DNA of 7,056 nucleotides from a virus. Lineage: Duplodnaviria; Heunggongvirae; Uroviricota; Caudoviricetes. The stretch lies in the IMG/VR virus record IMGVR_UViG_2693429562_000006; one strand, given 5' to 3'. A program made the translations under genes and the position numbers. Position 1 is the stretch's first letter; each line of letters begins with the position of its first letter. The notes under the pieces are model-generated. The model had not been told where the DNA came from and did not search any database. It worked only from the letters and a program-made list of their open reading frames with translations. Positions 1 through 7,056 of the stretch are shown one piece after another.

Positions 1-1176
1 GCGCTGTACTGGATAGCCGCCAGTATCAATATCAGGCCGGGCCATGATTATTATTTTTACGTTCGCAGTGTGAACACCGTTGGCAAATCGGCATTTGTGG
101 AGGCCATCGGTCGGGCGAGCGATGATGCAGAAGGTTATCTGAATTTTTATAAAGGGTTGATCAATAAAACGCATCTCGGCAAGGAGTTGTGGACGCAGAT
201 TGATAACGGTCAGCTTGCGCCGGACCTGACTGAAATCAGGACGTCCATTACGAATGTCAGCAATGAAATCACGCAAACCGTCAATAAAAAACTGGAAAAT
301 CAGAGTGCTGCAATCCAGCAGATACAGAAAGTTCAGGTTGATACAAATAATAACCTGAACAGCATGTGGGCTGTGAAGCTGCAACAGATGAAGGACGGAC
401 GCCTTTATATTGCGGGTATCGGTGCCGGTATTGAGAATACGCCAGCAGGAATGCAGAGTCAGGTGCTGCTGGCGGCAGACAGGATTGCGATGATTAATCC
501 TGCGAATGGCAACACAAAGCCGATGTTTGTTGGTCAGGGCGATCAGATATTCATGAACGACGTGTTCCTGAAATGCCTGACGGCTCCGACCATTACCAGC
601 GGCGGTAATCCTCCGGCATTTTCCCTGACACCTGGCGGACGGCTGACGGCGAAAAATGCCGATATCAGCGGTAACGTGAACGCGAACTCCGGGACGCTCA
701 ACAACGTCACGATTAATAAGAACTGTCGGGTTCTGGGAAAATTGTCCGCGAACCAGATTGAAGGCGATCTCGTTAAAACAGTGGGCAAACCTTTCCCACG
801 GGACTCCCGGGCACCGGAGAGGTGGCCATCAGGGACCATTACCGTCAGGGTTTATGACGATCAGCCGTTTGATCGGCAAATTGTTATTCCCGCGGTGGCG
901 TTTCGCGGTGCTAAACATGAGCGGAAGAATAACAATATTTATTCGTCATGCCGCCTGATAGTGAAGAAAAACGGTGCTGAAATTTATAACCGAACGACCC
1001 TGGATAATACGCTGATATATACGGGTGTTATTGATATGCCTGCCGGTCACGGTCACATGACGCTGGAGTTTTCTGTATCGGCATGGCTGGTAAATGGCTG
1101 GTATCCCACAGCAAGTATCAGCGATTTGCTGGTTGTGGTGATGAAGAAAGCCACTGCAGGCATCACGATTAGCTGA
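1..1176 (+). CDS. J: Tail tip host-specificity protein J, C-terminal portion (5'-partial; the frame is open from base 1, so the listed ATG at 70 is internal)
   Basis: Frame 1 has no stop from base 1 to the TGA at 1174-1176. The translation ([35 protein letters not shown]..., ...[54 protein letters not shown]...) matches my recollection of the lambda J C-terminal region. Synteny J-lom-stf-tfa supports it. Confidence 0.8.
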
Positions 1177-1194
1177 ATTTTATAACCCAGATAC

Positions 1195-1219
1195 GGGCAC
1201 CAGAAATGGTGCCTTTTTT
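1195..1219 (+). terminator. Putative rho-independent terminator downstream of J
   Basis: Inverted repeat ggcacc (1196-1201) / ggtgcc (1208-1213) with a 6-nt loop, followed directly by tttttt (1214-1219). Confidence 0.5.
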
Positions 1220-1243
1220 ATTGCAGAAAAGCGAGAGGTAATT

Positions 1244-1843
1244 ATGCGTAAAGTTTGTGCAGCCATTTTGTCCGCAGCCATTTGCCTGGCCGTATCCGGT
1301 GCGCCTGCATGGGCGTCTGAACATCAGTCCACGCTGAGCGCCGGGTATCTTCAGACCCATACTGATATGCCAGGCAGCGATGACCTGAAGGGCATTAACG
1401 TGAAATACCGTTATGAGTTTACGGACACGCTGGGGCTGATTACGTCATTCAGTTATGCCAACGCTGAAGATGAGCAAAAAACGCATTACAGCGATACCCG
1501 CTGGCATGAGGATTCCGTGCGTAACCGCTGGTTCAGCGTGATGGCGGGGCCGTCTGTGCGCGTGAATGAATGGTTCAGCGCGTATGCGATGGCGGGCGTG
1601 GCTTACAGCCGTGTGTCGACCTTCTCCGGGGATTATCTCCGCGTAACTGACAACAAGGGGAAAACGCACGATGTGCTGACCGGAAGTGATGGCGGTCGCC
1701 ACAGCAACACGTCTCTGGCGTGGGGGGCTGGCGTGCAGTTTAACCCGACCGAATCCGTGGCCATTGACCTTGCTTATGAAGGTTCCGGCAGTGGTGACTG
1801 GCGCACTGACGGTTTCATCGTGGGTGTCGGTTATAAGTTCTGA
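1244..1843 (+). CDS. lom: Lom outer-membrane protein (Ail/Lom family beta-barrel; lysogenic-conversion moron)
   Basis: 199-aa ORF. SD-like gagagg sits 7 nt upstream of the ATG. N-terminus MRKVCAAILSAAICLAVSGAPAWA looks like a signal peptide with an AWA cleavage site. C-terminus ...GFIVGVGYKF ends in an aromatic residue, typical of outer-membrane beta-barrels. Overall it resembles lambda Lom and sits in the lambda position between J and stf. Confidence 0.9.
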   Translation: MRKVCAAILSAAICLAVSGAPAWASEHQSTLSAGYLQTHTDMPGSDDLKGINVKYRYEFTDTLGLITSFSYANAEDEQKTHYSDTRWHEDSVRNRWFSVMAGPSVRVNEWFSAYAMAGVAYSRVSTFSGDYLRVTDNKGKTHDVLTGSDGGRHSNTSLAWGAGVQFNPTESVAIDLAYEGSGSGDWRTDGFIVGVGYKF

Positions 1844-1938
1844 TTAGCCAGGTAACACAGTGTTATGACTGCCCGCTGGTTCAGGCGGGCTTTTTGTGGG
1901 GTGAATATGGCAGTAAAGATTTCAGGTGTACTGAAAGA
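1687..1938 (+). repeat. Copy A of a duplicated segment (lom 3' end + intergenic terminator + first 32 nt of stf)
   Basis: Direct repeat of 2474-2643 with near-identity by eye. Copy B lacks the 83 bp at 1721-1803 and differs by a few substitutions and one extra T. Confidence 0.85.
1871..1895 (+). terminator. Putative rho-independent terminator downstream of lom
   Basis: gcccgc (1871-1876) / gcgggc (1885-1890) stem followed by ttttt (1891-1895). Confidence 0.5.
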
Positions 1939-2233
1939 TGGGGCGGGTAAACCTGTCGTAAATTGTGCGATTGAACTGCGGGCCAGAAGAACCAGTCCGA
2001 CCGTTGTGGCACACGTTGTTGCCACTTGCGTGACGGACAATAACGGTGCTTATGTGATTGAGGCTGAGCCGGGGTATTACGAGGTTGCGCTTCACTGTAA
2101 CGGCTGGCAGCCAACCCGTGTCGGGGATATTGATGTGGCACCGACTGATGCACCGGGGACACTGAACGCGTTTCTGAATGCACCAAAGGATGGTGATTTA
2201 CGTCCGGAGGTGATGAAGTGTCAGCGCCAGTGA
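1907..2233 (+). pseudogene. Truncated side tail fibre gene: a diverged N-terminal domain (~102 aa of Stf-like sequence) followed by 6 foreign codons and a stop
   Basis: Begins [12 protein letters not shown], identical to the N-terminus of the intact stf at 2612, then runs colinear but diverged (...PGTLNAFLNAPKDGDLRPEV versus ...[20 protein letters not shown]). Similarity stops after codon ~102 (nt ~2212). The tail MKCQRQ-stop reads into the adjacent IS-like sequence. The listed ATG at 1865 lies inside the lom terminator hairpin, so 1907 is the more likely start. Confidence 0.55.
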
Positions 2234-2462
2234 TATAAGACGGTAATTCGCCATTTGGATTGTCCGCTCCACCCAACATGTTGTTTCCTTAAGGTTCTCA
2301 CACCAGAAAGGACATCAACATGCTGAGCAGAGAGGACTTTTACATGATAAAGCAAATGCGCCAGCAGGGCGCGTACATCGTCGATATTGCGACTCAGATT
2401 GGTTGCTCTGAACGGACGGTCAGACGCTACCTCAAATACCCTGAACCGCCAGCCAGAAAGAC
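2219..2462 (+). mobile_element. Left end of an IS21-family insertion sequence (IS100-like), truncated by the N gap; left boundary approximate (2211-2221)
   Basis: Stf homology ends at ~2212. The sequence from tgtcagcgcc onward carries, about 100 nt in, an ORF whose N-terminus (MLSREDFYMIKQMRQQGAYIVDIATQIGCSERTVRRYLKYPEPPARK) I recognise as the helix-turn-helix start of an IS21-family IstA transposase. Recognition is from memory, not a search. Confidence 0.5.
2320..2462 (+). CDS. istA: IstA transposase, N-terminal 47 codons only (3'-truncated at the assembly gap)
   Basis: ATG at 2320 preceded by aaagga. The HTH-like motif CSERTVRRYL is present. The ORF runs directly into the N run. Confidence 0.5.
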
Positions 2463-2473: not shown

Positions 2474-2547
2474 TGATGGCGGTCGCCACAGCAACACGTC
2501 TCTGGCGCACTGACGGTTTCATCGTGGGTGTCGGTTATAAATTCTGA
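2474..2547 (+). pseudogene. lom: Second-copy lom 3' remnant (5'-truncated, with an 83-bp internal deletion relative to 1687-1843)
   Basis: 2474-2507 matches 1687-1720 and 2508-2547 matches 1804-1843, ending in the same ...WRTDGFIVGVGYKF-stop. The missing block is bounded by ctggcg in copy A (1715-1720 and 1798-1803). The listed 75-aa ORF 2320-2547 is a chimera reading across the gap. Confidence 0.7.
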
Positions 2548-2574
2548 TTAGCCAGGTAACACAGTGTTATGACA

Positions 2575-2600
2575 GCCCGCCGGTTCAGGCGGGCTTTTTT
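2575..2600 (+). terminator. Putative rho-independent terminator (second copy of the lom terminator)
   Basis: gcccgcc / ggcgggc stem followed by tttttt (2595-2600). The t to c change relative to copy A adds one base pair to the stem. Confidence 0.5.
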
Positions 2601-2611
2601 GTGGGGTGAAT

Positions 2612-5600
2612 ATGGCAGTAAAGATTTCAGGTGTACTGAAAGACGGCACAGGAAAACCGGTACAGAACTGCACAATCCAGCTGAAAGCAAAACGTAACAG
2701 CACCACGGTGGTGGTGAACACGCTGGCCTCAGAAAATCCGGATGAAGCCGGGCGTTACAGCATGGACGTTGAGTACGGTCAGTACAGCGTTATTCTGTTG
2801 GTGGAAGGATTCCCGCCGTCACATGCCGGGACCATCACCGTGTATGAAGATTCCCGACCCGGTACGCTGAATGATTTTCTCGGTGCCATGACGGAGGATG
2901 ATGCCCGTCCGGAGGCACTGCGCCGTTTTGAGCTGATGGTGGAAGAGGTGGCGCGTAACGCGTCCGCGGTGGCACAGAACACGGCAGCCGCGAAGAAATC
3001 AGCCAGCGATGCCAGCACATCAGCCCGTGAGGCGGCAACCCATGCGACTGATGCTGCAGATTCAGCACGTGCAGCCAGCACGTCAGCCGGACAGGCCGCT
3101 TCGTCGGCTCAGTCAGCGTCTTCCAGCGCAGGAACGGCATCAACAAAGGCCACTGAAGCCTCAAAAAGTGCTGCCGCTGCAGAGTCCTCAAAAAGCGCGG
3201 CGGCTACCAGTGCCGGTGCGGCGAAAACGTTAGAAACGAATGCGGCAGCGTCACAACAATCAGCAGCCACTTCTGCATCCACCGCGACCACGAAAGCGTC
3301 AGAAGCTGCCACCTCAGCCCGGGATGCGTCGGCTTCAAAAGAGGCGGCAAAATCATCAGAAACGAACGCATCATCAAGCGCCAGTAGCGCAGCTTCCTCG
3401 GCGACGGCGGCTGCAAATTCTGCGAAGGCGGCCAAAACGTCCGAGACGAACGCCAGGTCTTCTGAAACGGCAGCGGGACAGAGTGCCTCAGCTGCGGCAG
3501 GCTCAAAAACAGCGGCTGCGTCGTCTGCCAGCGCCGCGTCAACAAGTGCCGGGCAGGCCTCAGCCAGTGCCACCGCCGCCGGAAAATCGGCAGAAAGCGC
3601 CGCATCATCCGCTTCAACAGCCACAACGAAGGCTGGCGAAGCCACTGAGCAGGCCACGGCAGCAGCGAGGTCAGCTTCCGCAGCGAAGACATCCGAAACG
3701 AACGCGAAAGCGTCGGAAACCCGTGCAGAATCCTCAAAAACGGCTGCCGCATCGTCCGCCAGTTCGGCGGCGTCATCGGCATCATCGGCGTCTGCTTCAA
3801 AAGATGAGGCGACCAGACAGGCGTCAGCAGCGAAGGGCAGCGCCACGACGGCATCCACGAAGGCGACAGAGGCTGCTGGTAGTGCGACGGCAGCAGCTCA
3901 GAGCAAAAGTACGGCGGAATCTGCAGCAACGCGCGCTGAGACAGCGGCAAAACGGGCAGAGGATATTGCATCCGCCGTGGCGCTTGAGGATGCGAGCACG
4001 ACGAAAAAGGGGATAGTACAGCTCAGTAGTGCGACTAACAGCACTTCCGAGTCACTGGCGGCAACACCAAAAGCCGTTAAGGCCGCGTATGACCTGGCTA
4101 ACGGGAAATACACCGCACAGGATGCAACGACAGCACAGAAAGGGATAATCCAGCTAAGCAGCGCGACCAACAGCACGTCTGAAACGCTGGCGGCAACGCC
4201 AAAGGCAGTAAAAGCAGCCAATGACAATGCTGAGAAACGTCTGCAGAAAGATCAGAACGGTGCGGATATCCCTGGCAAAGACACCTTTACGAAAAATATT
4301 GGTGCCTGCCGTGCCTTCGGTGGGTCAGTAAGCACAACAACAGGAAACTGGACGACTGCACAGTTTATCGAGTGGCTGGATTCTCAGGGAGCATTTAACC
4401 ATCCATACTGGATGTGCAAGGGTTCCTGGTCTTATGGCAATAATAAAATCATTACTGATACTGGCTGCGGTAATATTCATCTCGCCGGAGCTGTCATTGA
4501 AGTAATGGGGATAAAGTCAGCGATGACGATCCGCATTACCACTCCGACCACATCCAGCGGTGGCGGAACAACCAACGCCCAGTTTACCTATATTAATCAC
4601 GGAACAGATTATTCACCTGGCTGGCGAAGGGACTATAACTCCAGAAATAAGCCAACGGCATCAGAGATCGGGGCGCTACCGTCAGGTGGAACAGCAGTAT
4701 CATCAGTTAATCTGGCTTCAAAAGGTCGGGTAGCCGCGCTGACAGACAATACGCAGGGGGCAGCAGGTCTTGAGTTATACGAGGTGTATAACAACGGATA
4801 TCCAACAGCGTATGGAAATATCATTCACCTGAAAGGGATGACAGCCGTTGGCGAAGGTGAGTTACTCATCGGCTGGAGTGGTACAAGCGGTGCTCATGCT
4901 CCGGCATTTATTCGTTCACGACGGGATACGACCGACGCAAACTGGTCGCCGTGGGCGCAGCTTTACACCTCGGCTCATCCTCCTGCAGAGTTTTATCCAG
5001 TCGGTGCACCAATCCCGTGGCCATCAGATACCGTTCCGTCTGGTTATGCCCTGATGCAGGGGCAGACTTTTGACAAATCTGCTTACCCGAAACTTGCAGC
5101 CGCTTATCCGTCAGGCGTGATCCCTGATATGCGTGGCTGGACGATTAAGGGCAAGCCCGCCAGTGGTCGTGCCGTATTGTCTCAGGAACAGGATGGCATT
5201 AAATCGCACACCCACAGCGCCAGCGCATCCAGTACGGATTTGGGGACGAAAACCACATCGTCGTTTGATTACGGCACTAAATCCACGAATAACACCGGGG
5301 CGCATACGCACAGTCTGAGCGGCTCTACAAGTTCAGCTGGGGCCCACCAACATAGTCAGACTGGGCCCAGAACGAATAGCGGGAGTCAACCTACTGGAAT
5401 GTTTCCGGCAGGGAGTACTCAAGTTAGCGGGACTAATCAGGTTGGTATCAGTGGCTCATTAACCAGTGGCACCTCCCAATGGGTAGGTAAATCATCTTCA
5501 GAAGGAAACCATACACACTCACTGTCCGGCACAGCAGCATCTGCGGGTGCACACGCGCATACTGTCGGTATTGGTGCTCATACGCACTCTGTTGCGATTG

Positions 5601-5695
5601 GTTCACATGGACACACCATCACCGTTAACGCTGCTGGTAACGCGGAAAACACCGTCAAAAACATCGCATTTAACTATATTGTGAGGCTCGCATAA
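2612..5695 (+). CDS. stf: Side tail fibre protein, ~1027 aa, mosaic. ATG at 2612 is preferred; an upstream in-frame GTG at 2606 is the ORF-track start.
   Basis: N-terminus [20 protein letters not shown]... and C-terminus ...[31 protein letters not shown] match my recollection of lambda Stf. It contains a long Ala/Ser/Thr-rich low-complexity region (~2950-3990), two fibre repeats, the conserved GAPIPWPSD...SAYPKLA block, and HxH motif clusters in the tip. ggggtg lies upstream of the ATG. Confidence 0.9.
4004..4231 (+). repeat. Two intragenic tail-fibre repeats within stf (about 4004-4099 and 4136-4231)
   Basis: [32 protein letters not shown] and [32 protein letters not shown] are near-identical 32-aa units 44 codons apart. 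Confidence 0.6.
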
Positions 5696-6276
5696 TGGCA
5701 TTCAGAATGAGTGAACAAGCACGGACCATAAAAATTTATAACCTGCTGGCCGGAACTAATGAATTTATTGGTGAAGGTGACGCATATATTCCGCCTCATA
5801 CAGGTCTGCCTGCAAACAGTACCGATATTGCACCGCCAGATATTCCGGCTGGTTTCGTGGCTGTTTTCAACAGTGATGAGTCATCGTGGCATCTCGTTGA
5901 AGATCATCGGGGTAAAACGGTTTATGACGTGGCTTCCGGCGACGCGTTATTTATTTCTGAACTCGGCTCATTACCGGAAAATGTCACCTGGTTATCCCCG
6001 GAAGGGGAGTTTCAGAAGTGGAACGGCACAGCCTGGGTGAAGGATACGGAAGCAGAAAAACTGTTCCGGATCCGGGAGGCGGAAGAAACAAAAAACAGCC
6101 TGATGCAGGTAGCCAGTGAGCATATAGCGCCGCTTCAGGATGCTGTGGATCTGGAGATCGCAACGGAGAAAGAAACCTTGTTGCTGGAAGCTTGGAAAAA
6201 GTATCGGGTGTTGCTGAACCGTGTTGATACATCAACTGCACCGGATATTGAATGGCCAGTAGCACCTATAGGGTAA
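5695..6276 (+). CDS. tfa: Tail fibre assembly protein (chaperone for Stf)
   Basis: 193-aa [37 protein letters not shown]... resembling lambda Tfa. Its ATG overlaps the stf stop in TAATG (5693-5697), suggesting translational coupling. Confidence 0.9.
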
Positions 6277-6362
6277 ATTCGTAATGATTACCTAAATACG
6301 TTATTCTTTTGTTAAAAAAGTGATTTTGCTATAGGTAGGGAGTATGTTCTTGGATTAAGAAT

Positions 6363-6392
6363 AAAAAATCGCCATGAAAGAGCTTCATGGCG
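6363..6392 (-). terminator. Possible minus-strand rho-independent terminator
   Basis: Perfect 9-bp inverted repeat cgccatgaa (6370-6378) / ttcatggcg (6384-6392) with a 5-nt loop. The A6 run at 6363-6368 becomes a T run following the hairpin on the minus strand. Confidence 0.35.
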
Positions 6393-6541
6393 AGTACATA
6401 AACGTACAAAATGTGATGAAAGTAGAGTGGCGTAAGCCACTATATTAAGATATGACAATAGCGAAGAAAAGTAAATAACATTTTATGGACGTTTAATTGT
6501 TAATTATAAAAACTAGAGTGCCCGATATTGTTTATCTTGCT

Positions 6542-6643
6542 TTAAAATAATGTACTCAAACCAAATTTTTGAGCTAAAAGCTCAAATAATATAAATGCAA
6601 TAATAATGTTTAATAAGACAATTAGCTTGCTTTGTATTTTCAT
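6542..6643 (-). CDS. Speculative small hydrophobic ORF (33 aa, MKIQSKLIVLLNIIIAFILFELLAQKFGLSTLF)
   Basis: Hand translation of the minus strand: ATG at 6643 to TAA at 6542-6544. It has a ~18-residue hydrophobic core. There is no clear SD, and AT-rich DNA biases towards I/L/F/K codons, so this may be chance. Confidence 0.15.
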   Translation of the reverse strand: MKIQSKLIVLLNIIIAFILFELLAQKFGLSTLF

Positions 6644-6677
6644 TTCGGAATACTGTTAAGTAACTTTGATGACCCTA

Positions 6678-6706
6678 ACAATAGATCGGAATTTTCTTAG
6701 AGTCAA
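6678..6706 (-). promoter_or_regulatory. Candidate sigma70-like promoter on the minus strand, upstream of the small ORF
   Basis: On the minus strand: TTGACT (complement of + 6701-6706), a 17-bp spacer, then TATTGT (complement of + 6678-6683). This is about 35 nt upstream of the ATG at 6643. Confidence 0.2.
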
Positions 6707-7025
6707 TGGTCACTGTTTTTGCTTGCAAAGCAAATGTTTTGGTGGTTATAAGTCGTCTTAATATAGTCACGCATGCAACTTGTTCCATGCGGAGATTAAA
6801 GATTGGAATATAACGCGAAGATGGAATTAAATTACATTTGCAATAATTAATTTATTATTACTCAATAATTACCGATATTATTATTGTAAATTAATCATTA
6901 GAATGCAAAAAGAAATGTAACGGCAAAATAAGAGGACGATAGCTGAGAAAAAAGCGTGCTTTCCCAATCTGGGGCAAATCACGTCTGAATGACACCTGAA
7001 AACAGGTGGTAGCCTCAAGAAGGCT

Positions 7026-7056
7026 GGTGATGCTGCCAACTTACTGATTTAGTGTA
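7026..7056 (+). mobile_element. IS1 left terminal inverted repeat (element continues beyond the window)
   Basis: ggtgatgctgccaacttactgatttagtgta matches the IS1 left end as I recall it (GGTGATGCTGCCAACTTACTGAT...). Only 31 bp are present. Confidence 0.7.

Follow-up and report, generated by a model that had tools for sequence, protein, structure and literature searches.

The window (the whole stretch of DNA that was analyzed, 7056 bases) is made up of two discontinuous pieces, 1-2462 and 2474-7056, with 11 N between them. The left piece belongs to a prophage referred to here as prophage A and the right piece to a second one, prophage B. The following features were found.

1-1176, + strand: 3' part of J (tail tip, host-specificity protein) of prophage A, running off the window start, with the Pfam domains Phage_Tail_Tip and Ig_GpJ_C.
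1244-1843, + strand: lom of prophage A, intact, 199 aa, an Ail/Lom outer-membrane beta-barrel (Pfam Ail_Lom 1-199 of 199, E = 4e-129).
1798-1938, + strand: copy A of the lom-stf junction, 97% identical to 2502-2643.
1871-1890, + strand: terminator-like hairpin and T run after lom, GCCCGCTGGTTCAGGCGGGC TTTTT, from a consensus scan.
1907-2218, + strand: stf', codons 1-104 of the fibre gene of prophage A, with a truncated phage_tail_N domain (PF08400 1-104 of 134, E = 1e-36).
2219-2462, + strand: left end of an IS21-like element, stopping inside istA, 98.4% identical to RefSeq IS21-like loci.
2463-2473, no strand: run of 11 N in the window letters, a scaffold gap; closed genomes show istA after 2462.
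2474-2547, + strand: lom' of prophage B, a 3' stub at the contig start with an 83-bp deletion, from alignment to the intact lom.
2502-2643, + strand: copy B of the lom-stf junction, from alignment to copy A.
2612-5695, + strand: stf of prophage B, an intact lambda-type side tail fibre of 1027 aa with its ATG at 2612, from Pfam.
5695-6276, + strand: tfa of prophage B, a tail fibre assembly gene, 193 aa (Pfam Caudo_TAP, E = 5e-44).
7026-7056, + strand: first 31 nt of an IS1 copy at the right contig end, from the closed-genome continuation.

The stub stf' and the intact stf therefore sit on separate assembly pieces, and each of the four ends of these pieces falls within a repeat (J, the IS21-like element, lom, or IS1).

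The open reading frame of the stub runs from the ATG at 1907 to a TGA at 2231-2233 and encodes 108 aa. Its product scores 126.4 bits against PF08400 (cut-off 26.6, E = 9.8e-37) and covers model positions 1-104 of 134; the intact stf covers 1-134 of 134. The stub occupies the expected place of a fibre gene in a lambdoid tail module, after J and lom, and in closed genomes the whole module from Phage_min_tail to J was found upstream of stf'. A full-length fibre carrying the same N-terminal variant was looked for and found among annotated E. coli genomes. In WP_151334812.1, a fibre of 470 aa from E. coli O121, the first 104 residues are identical to those of the stub (104/104). Its gene holds the same J-lom-stf position in E. 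coli O121 strain 201805972, and positions 1-2218 of the window are 99.1% identical to the prophage of this strain and to several EIEC-like strains (the gpJ of E. coli O121 and the window J are likewise 99.1% identical). Because an intact 470-aa counterpart has identical first 104 residues, the stub is the 5' end of a real fibre gene, and the original prediction of a truncated, diverged side-tail-fibre N-terminus was borne out.

The DNA match to the uninterrupted O121 fibre gene stops exactly at 2218. The IS at the stub site was absent from all 5426 complete E. coli genomes, a set that contains no Shigella, and the best matches in these genomes also end at 2218. A search for the exact stf'::IS junction in a genome contig collection with one genome per species gave no match. 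In a protein search with the 104-aa fragment all matches were short or partial proteins of at most 181 aa. Relatives of comparable length in the database all bear the label 'partial', and most are fragments at contig ends; the NCBI label on such pieces is 'prophage tail fiber N-terminal domain-containing protein, partial [Shigella sonnei]'. A complete small protein was considered and rejected, the domain being cut at 104 of 134 and the final residues being encoded by the IS. Nor is the stub a full-length fibre, as its frame ends after 104 fibre codons and 4 IS codons, the intact 470-aa form being confined to other strains. The region 1907-2233 is thus a pseudogene that retains the first 104 codons of a side-tail-fibre gene, and the prophage to which this gene belongs is a defective lambdoid one of S. 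sonnei. It is a member of the Stf family by descent, yet a pseudogene.

The IS21-like element starts with TGTCAGCGCC at 2219, which is the start of the match to other IS21-like copies. Its left terminus was defined by the meeting point of two alignments at 2218/2219, with the O121 fibre gene on one side and the IS on the other. The first 15 nt of the element give the residues CQRQ and the TGA to the stf' frame. Two figures proposed earlier were corrected by this boundary: the frame is closed by 4 codons and a stop rather than by six codons, and the fibre-derived part comprises 104 codons (1907-2218) rather than 102. The istA start lies at 2320, and HTH domains were detected by Pfam in the 47 residues encoded before the gap. 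The element is 98.4-98.6% identical to loci which RefSeq names 'IS21-like element IS21 family transposase', and a near-identical E. coli copy contains both istA and istB. When this E. coli copy was searched for inverted repeats, with the settings used only an internal 15-nt pair was found and no terminal repeat.

The fate of the element and of the rest of the fibre gene was followed in closed genomes. CP010829.1, the chromosome of S. sonnei FORC_011 (PMC5447701), is 99.92% identical to window 1-2462. Past the junction, istA is interrupted by an IS3-family insertion and then runs on to about position 1100 of the IS21-like element, where a second IS3-family copy follows; after that, stf resumes at O121 coordinate 8652 with 433 nt missing. 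The 3' remnant of stf is followed by a DUF4376 gene, found at this place in the S. sonnei closed genomes as in O121, and then by four metal-uptake ABC transporter genes. The nested IS structure 3' of the stub spans 10741-13854 of the examined CP010829.1 region. The IstA pieces of the closed genome contain rve and Mu-transpos_C_2 domains, and no istB accompanies them. The IS21-like copy is therefore itself dead: an IS3-family element splits it, it breaks off at about position 1100, and it has no istB. Prophage A as a whole is a remnant, and in the closed genome IS elements flank its surviving tail-tip module on both sides. The proposal that the gene was inactivated by an IS was thus correct as far as the IS21-like element goes, which does interrupt it, but incomplete, given the further IS3-family insertion and the 433-nt stf deletion in the closed genomes.

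A sequence of events can be proposed from these structures. An IS21-family element would have transposed into stf between codons 104 and 105, after which translation from the stf start would run 4 codons into the element and stop. Later, an IS3-family element would have inserted inside istA, and 433 nt of stf would have been lost along with the right portion of the IS21-like element in a deletion beside the second IS3-family copy. We infer both this order and simple transposition as the first event, since the right end of the element, where a target-site duplication would be read, is absent in the S. sonnei closed genomes. IS-driven gene decay is well established in Shigella.

Duplication of this region was also seen. 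The closed genome of S. sonnei 75/02 (CP019689.1) has, at about 4.62-4.64 Mb, two copies of the whole tail-tip module, lom and the stf'::IS junction included, about 9.4 kb apart; this is apparently a tandem duplication bounded by an IS3-family element. A draft scaffold, L007, contains two copies of the J-lom segment.

Could the 108-aa product still have a function? As judged from its domain content, it would lack the end of the N-terminal docking domain, the shaft, and the receptor-binding tip, so that no fibre could be made from it. It might instead be kept by selection as an unattached N-terminal domain that, for instance, competes with the fibres of other lambdoid phages for the docking sites on their tails. 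Neither the start codon nor the ribosome-binding site nor the frame is damaged, and an exact protein look-up found the identical 108-aa product in many S. sonnei assemblies, drafts as well as the closed CP010829.1. Such conservation is, however, expected from clonal descent in S. sonnei. Moreover, the Pfam domain breaks off at position 104 of 134, the IS contributes the stop and the 4 residues before it, the prophage remnant contains many IS elements, and the relatives of similar length are partial pieces. A functional product is therefore regarded as very improbable. The same low weight is given to the specific version in which the stub, with most of the tail-docking N-domain still in place, would be expressed and serve as a dominant-negative decoy at the Stf docking sites of co-resident or superinfecting lambdoid phages; the support for it is an intact ORF conserved in a clonal species, and nothing else. 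If this were true, it would be a prophage-remnant form of interference.

The stub and the intact stf share the DNA around their starts. An alignment of 1798-1938 with 2502-2643 has 142 columns, of which 138 are identical (97%); it needs a single 1-nt indel, in a T run. This junction runs from the 3' end of lom through the terminator hairpin and the ribosome-binding site to about codon 11 of stf, and most lambdoid prophages have it in conserved form. In copy B the hairpin lies at 2574-2595, and a T-to-C change there replaces a G-T pair by G-C. The shared DNA reaches 32 nt into the gene, the first mismatch (1939/2644) being the third base of codon 11, and after 1939 identity falls to 51% over 280 nt. 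By the maximum chi-square method the change point was placed at about 1938/1939, with a statistic that was not attained in any of 2000 permutations. The shared upstream DNA and first ~11 codons, as well as the abrupt stop of identity at codon ~11, were therefore confirmed, and no gradual decay was seen. At the protein level the two products align without gaps, in agreement with the predicted colinearity, at 52/104 identical residues (50%) overall and 41/93 (44%) past the first 11. The rough estimate of under half identity thus applies to the part past codon 11, while overall identity is exactly half.

The junction is far more widespread than the domain which follows it in the stub. At a threshold of at least 90% identity, the 141-nt junction was found at 12182 places in 4306 of the 5426 complete E. 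coli genomes, and it precedes stfR of the K-12 Rac prophage with 97.9% identity. The 280-nt body of the stub's N-domain type was found in only 11 of the 5426 by megablast, a search which needs roughly at least 85% identity. Among 50,697 deposited phage genomes the type was absent, the best protein match being 54% over the full length. The protein search showed several N-domain types, with about 100, 74, 65, and 53% identity to the fragment. The survey of lom-stf in the fetched loci gave essentially the two types of the window, the loci having been collected with type-specific patterns and forming a biased census; the unbiased counts of junction and body are those from the complete E. coli genomes. 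In a partial E. coli fibre (P0005) identity to the fragment extends for 34 residues and is then lost, and some E. coli genomes match the window only to 1995.

Mosaic boundaries, with conserved sequences between exchangeable modules, are well established in lambdoid phages. A conserved junction followed by about 50% identity, with several diverged N-domain types, is the normal lambdoid mosaic pattern, and homologous recombination in the conserved junction segments would swap fibre modules. The sharp step at codon 11 fits a mosaic boundary, and recombination would have made it. Codon 11 is not a unique site, as by sequence comparison mosaic switch points appear inside the N-domain as well, near residue 30-35. 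The predicted recombination breakpoint at the gene start hence holds as one such boundary and not as the only one.

Alternatively, the codon-11 step may be the edge of a constrained segment beside a fast-diverging domain, with no recombination breakpoint. In line with constraint, the first ~11 residues are kept in nearly all N-domain types, the terminator hairpin shows a pair-preserving change, and the segment is conserved at the 12182 E. coli places. Part of the sharpness of the boundary could indeed come from selection acting on the terminator, on the ribosome-binding site, and on the N-terminal residues, and constraint on the junction is sure to play a part. Against constraint alone, the first 10 codons show zero synonymous differences, and the lom 3' end is 97% identical when the rest of lom and J are about 89% identical in the same prophage pair. 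From prophage A to prophage B the gradient is thus about 89% in J and lom, 97% in the junction, and 51% in the N-domain, and because divergence differs between neighbouring modules (89% vs 51%), these modules have unlike histories. Hybrids that switch type at residue 30-35 also exist. Finally, selection and recombination are compatible, and a conserved segment is what recombination would use. Constraint in place of recombination is accordingly considered unlikely, and a mosaic boundary is the preferred reading of the step.

Eight closed chromosomes contain loci that match the right piece (2474-7056) with 99.89-99.98% identity. The stf of this piece contains phage_tail_N (1-134 of 134), Phage_fiber_2, and Collar domains and is likewise annotated as a 1027-aa gene in the closed genomes. 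The lom' which precedes it carries an 83-bp frameshifting deletion between CTGGCG 6-nt direct repeats, located by comparing 2474-2547 with 1687-1843; the repeats lie at 1715-1720 and 1798-1803 in the intact lom, and the deletion junction is at 2502-2507. The deletion is real, since the same junction recurs in 8 closed chromosomes and in 10 IMG/VR contigs, several of them free of N. In the closed chromosomes lom' extends upstream of the contig start at 2474. At the other end of the piece, the closed genome continues beyond window position 7056 with InsA/InsB genes (Pfam Zn_ribbon_InsA and DDE_Tnp_IS1), and we take 7026-7056 to be the IS1 terminal repeat. Between tfa and this terminus lies an AT-rich stretch (6400-7025, about 30% GC vs about 50-60% elsewhere), in which no ORF of at least 60 aa was found. 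Inside the 3' part of tfa, at 6038-6236 on the + strand, the Rfam model RF02111 (IS009), which describes a candidate small RNA, matches over its full length and scores 218 bits (gathering score 117).

It had been proposed that the stub and the intact stf are alternative N-termini in one fibre locus. This was not upheld: the two are separated by the 11-N gap, and in three closed S. sonnei chromosomes that hold both loci they lie about 0.68 Mb apart (the distance is about 685 kb in both CP023645.1 and CP066810.1 and, measured around the circle, about 681 kb in CP019689.1). By way of the lom protein, ten more closed-chromosome loci were identified that have the same junction as CP010829.1 and the same istA continuation past 2462. 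No prophage-B sequence was found within 10 kb of stf'::IS in CP010829.1, or within 5.6-10 kb at the 11 closed-chromosome loci with the stf'::IS junction. Conversely, in 8/8 closed prophage-B loci a full tail module lies upstream of stf; it ends in a J' and a lom' of its own, which are about 89% identical to J and lom of prophage A. The intact stf at 2612 is therefore the fibre gene of prophage B and not a second allele at one locus. A local tandem duplication of lom-stf was also considered and was rejected, given the ~89% identity of J and lom and the distance between the loci in closed genomes.

The reading that best accounts for the window is that the stub is an IS-broken fibre gene whose adjacency to the intact stf is a scaffold join of contigs from two prophages, with a probability of about 0.9. 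A short-read scaffolder would have joined the two contigs with 11 N, and the join was likely caused by read pairs anchored in the near-identical 141-nt lom-stf junction. In two other draft scaffolds the stf'::IS contig has other partners. In L007 the stf'::IS contig breaks at the same base, 2462, and is followed by a single N and then by mid-J'; in L013 it is followed by a single N and then by a different stf start. The right piece has one mismatch to the closed S. sonnei genome, at 2479, six bases from its start, and the base found there is that of copy A. The non-adjacency of the two loci would apply to the source strain by way of its close closed relatives, the source assembly being these 7056 bases only.

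The left piece differs from CP023645.1 only at 1282 and 1285, in the lom signal-peptide region. At both positions the closed genome has the bases of prophage B lom', as judged by eye from the L007 sequence, a pattern that could be due to gene conversion between lom copies or to read mixing in one assembly.

A contrary view is that the arrangement of the window is real, an IS-mediated rearrangement or deletion having fused 2462 to the lom' stub at 2474 to give tandem fibre starts in one prophage. The window does show a dead and a live fibre start 250 nt apart, and three independent scaffolds, L007 and L013 included, put a J-, lom-, or stf-containing contig after stf'::IS, a recurrent order that could be read as real linkage. 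IS-rich Shigella genomes also rearrange, and strain 75/02 apparently has this same module in tandem duplicate. The partner contig, however, differs each time, and the join itself consists of Ns between piece ends that lie in repeats, with a copy-A variant at 2479. In addition, 11/11 closed loci go on with istA past 2462 with no prophage B within 5.6-10 kb, and J' and lom' stand upstream in 8/8 closed prophage-B loci. A genuine fusion is on these grounds hardly credible, and the join of contigs from two prophages is preferred.

Taken as a scaffold join, the window serves as a caution that a short N run in a draft scaffold can mimic a duplicated gene start with an alternative allele; here the apparent allele arises from two prophages with a common conserved junction. 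The stub itself is the outcome of ordinary lambdoid mosaicism and ordinary Shigella IS decay, both already known, and it raises no new question. Mildly useful is the observation that the intact N-domain type is rare, with 11/5426 complete E. coli genomes carrying it, and that no deposited phage genome has it. The type is tied to EIEC/Shigella-type prophages that carry ipaH or lie beside the metal-uptake operon. In O121 strain 201805972 (10073-11824 of the examined region) the prophage has the type III effector gene ipaHd directly after the fibre and DUF4376 genes, next to yecD and aspS. By its genomic neighbours, the fibre type appears linked to effector-carrying prophages of the EIEC/Shigella type.

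Comparison with known systems places each part of the window. The order J, lom, stf, with an assembly gene (tfa) after the intact copy, is that of lambda Stf and of StfR of Rac, with the same N-domain family and the same junction, and the intact stf (2612-5695) carries all three Pfam domains expected of a lambda Stf-type fibre. Compared to lambda Stf, the stub has 104 codons and a rare N-domain type which is 50% identical to the window's lambda-type domain; its intact form is a short 470-aa fibre, with a DUF4376 gene where a Caudo_TAP tfa would otherwise stand. WP_151334812.1 of O121 strain 201805972, which is also found in EIEC-like strains such as CFSAN029787, is the uninterrupted form of the stub gene, without the IS. 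The O121 prophage has ipaHd downstream, whereas the S. sonnei locus has the four metal-uptake ABC transporter genes instead. The window copy of the IS21 family (istA/istB) amounts to 244 nt and is a member by its near-identity to annotated copies. With regard to lambdoid mosaic boundaries, no difference was seen, and the window is a typical example, with 89%, then 97%, then 51% identity along the two prophages.
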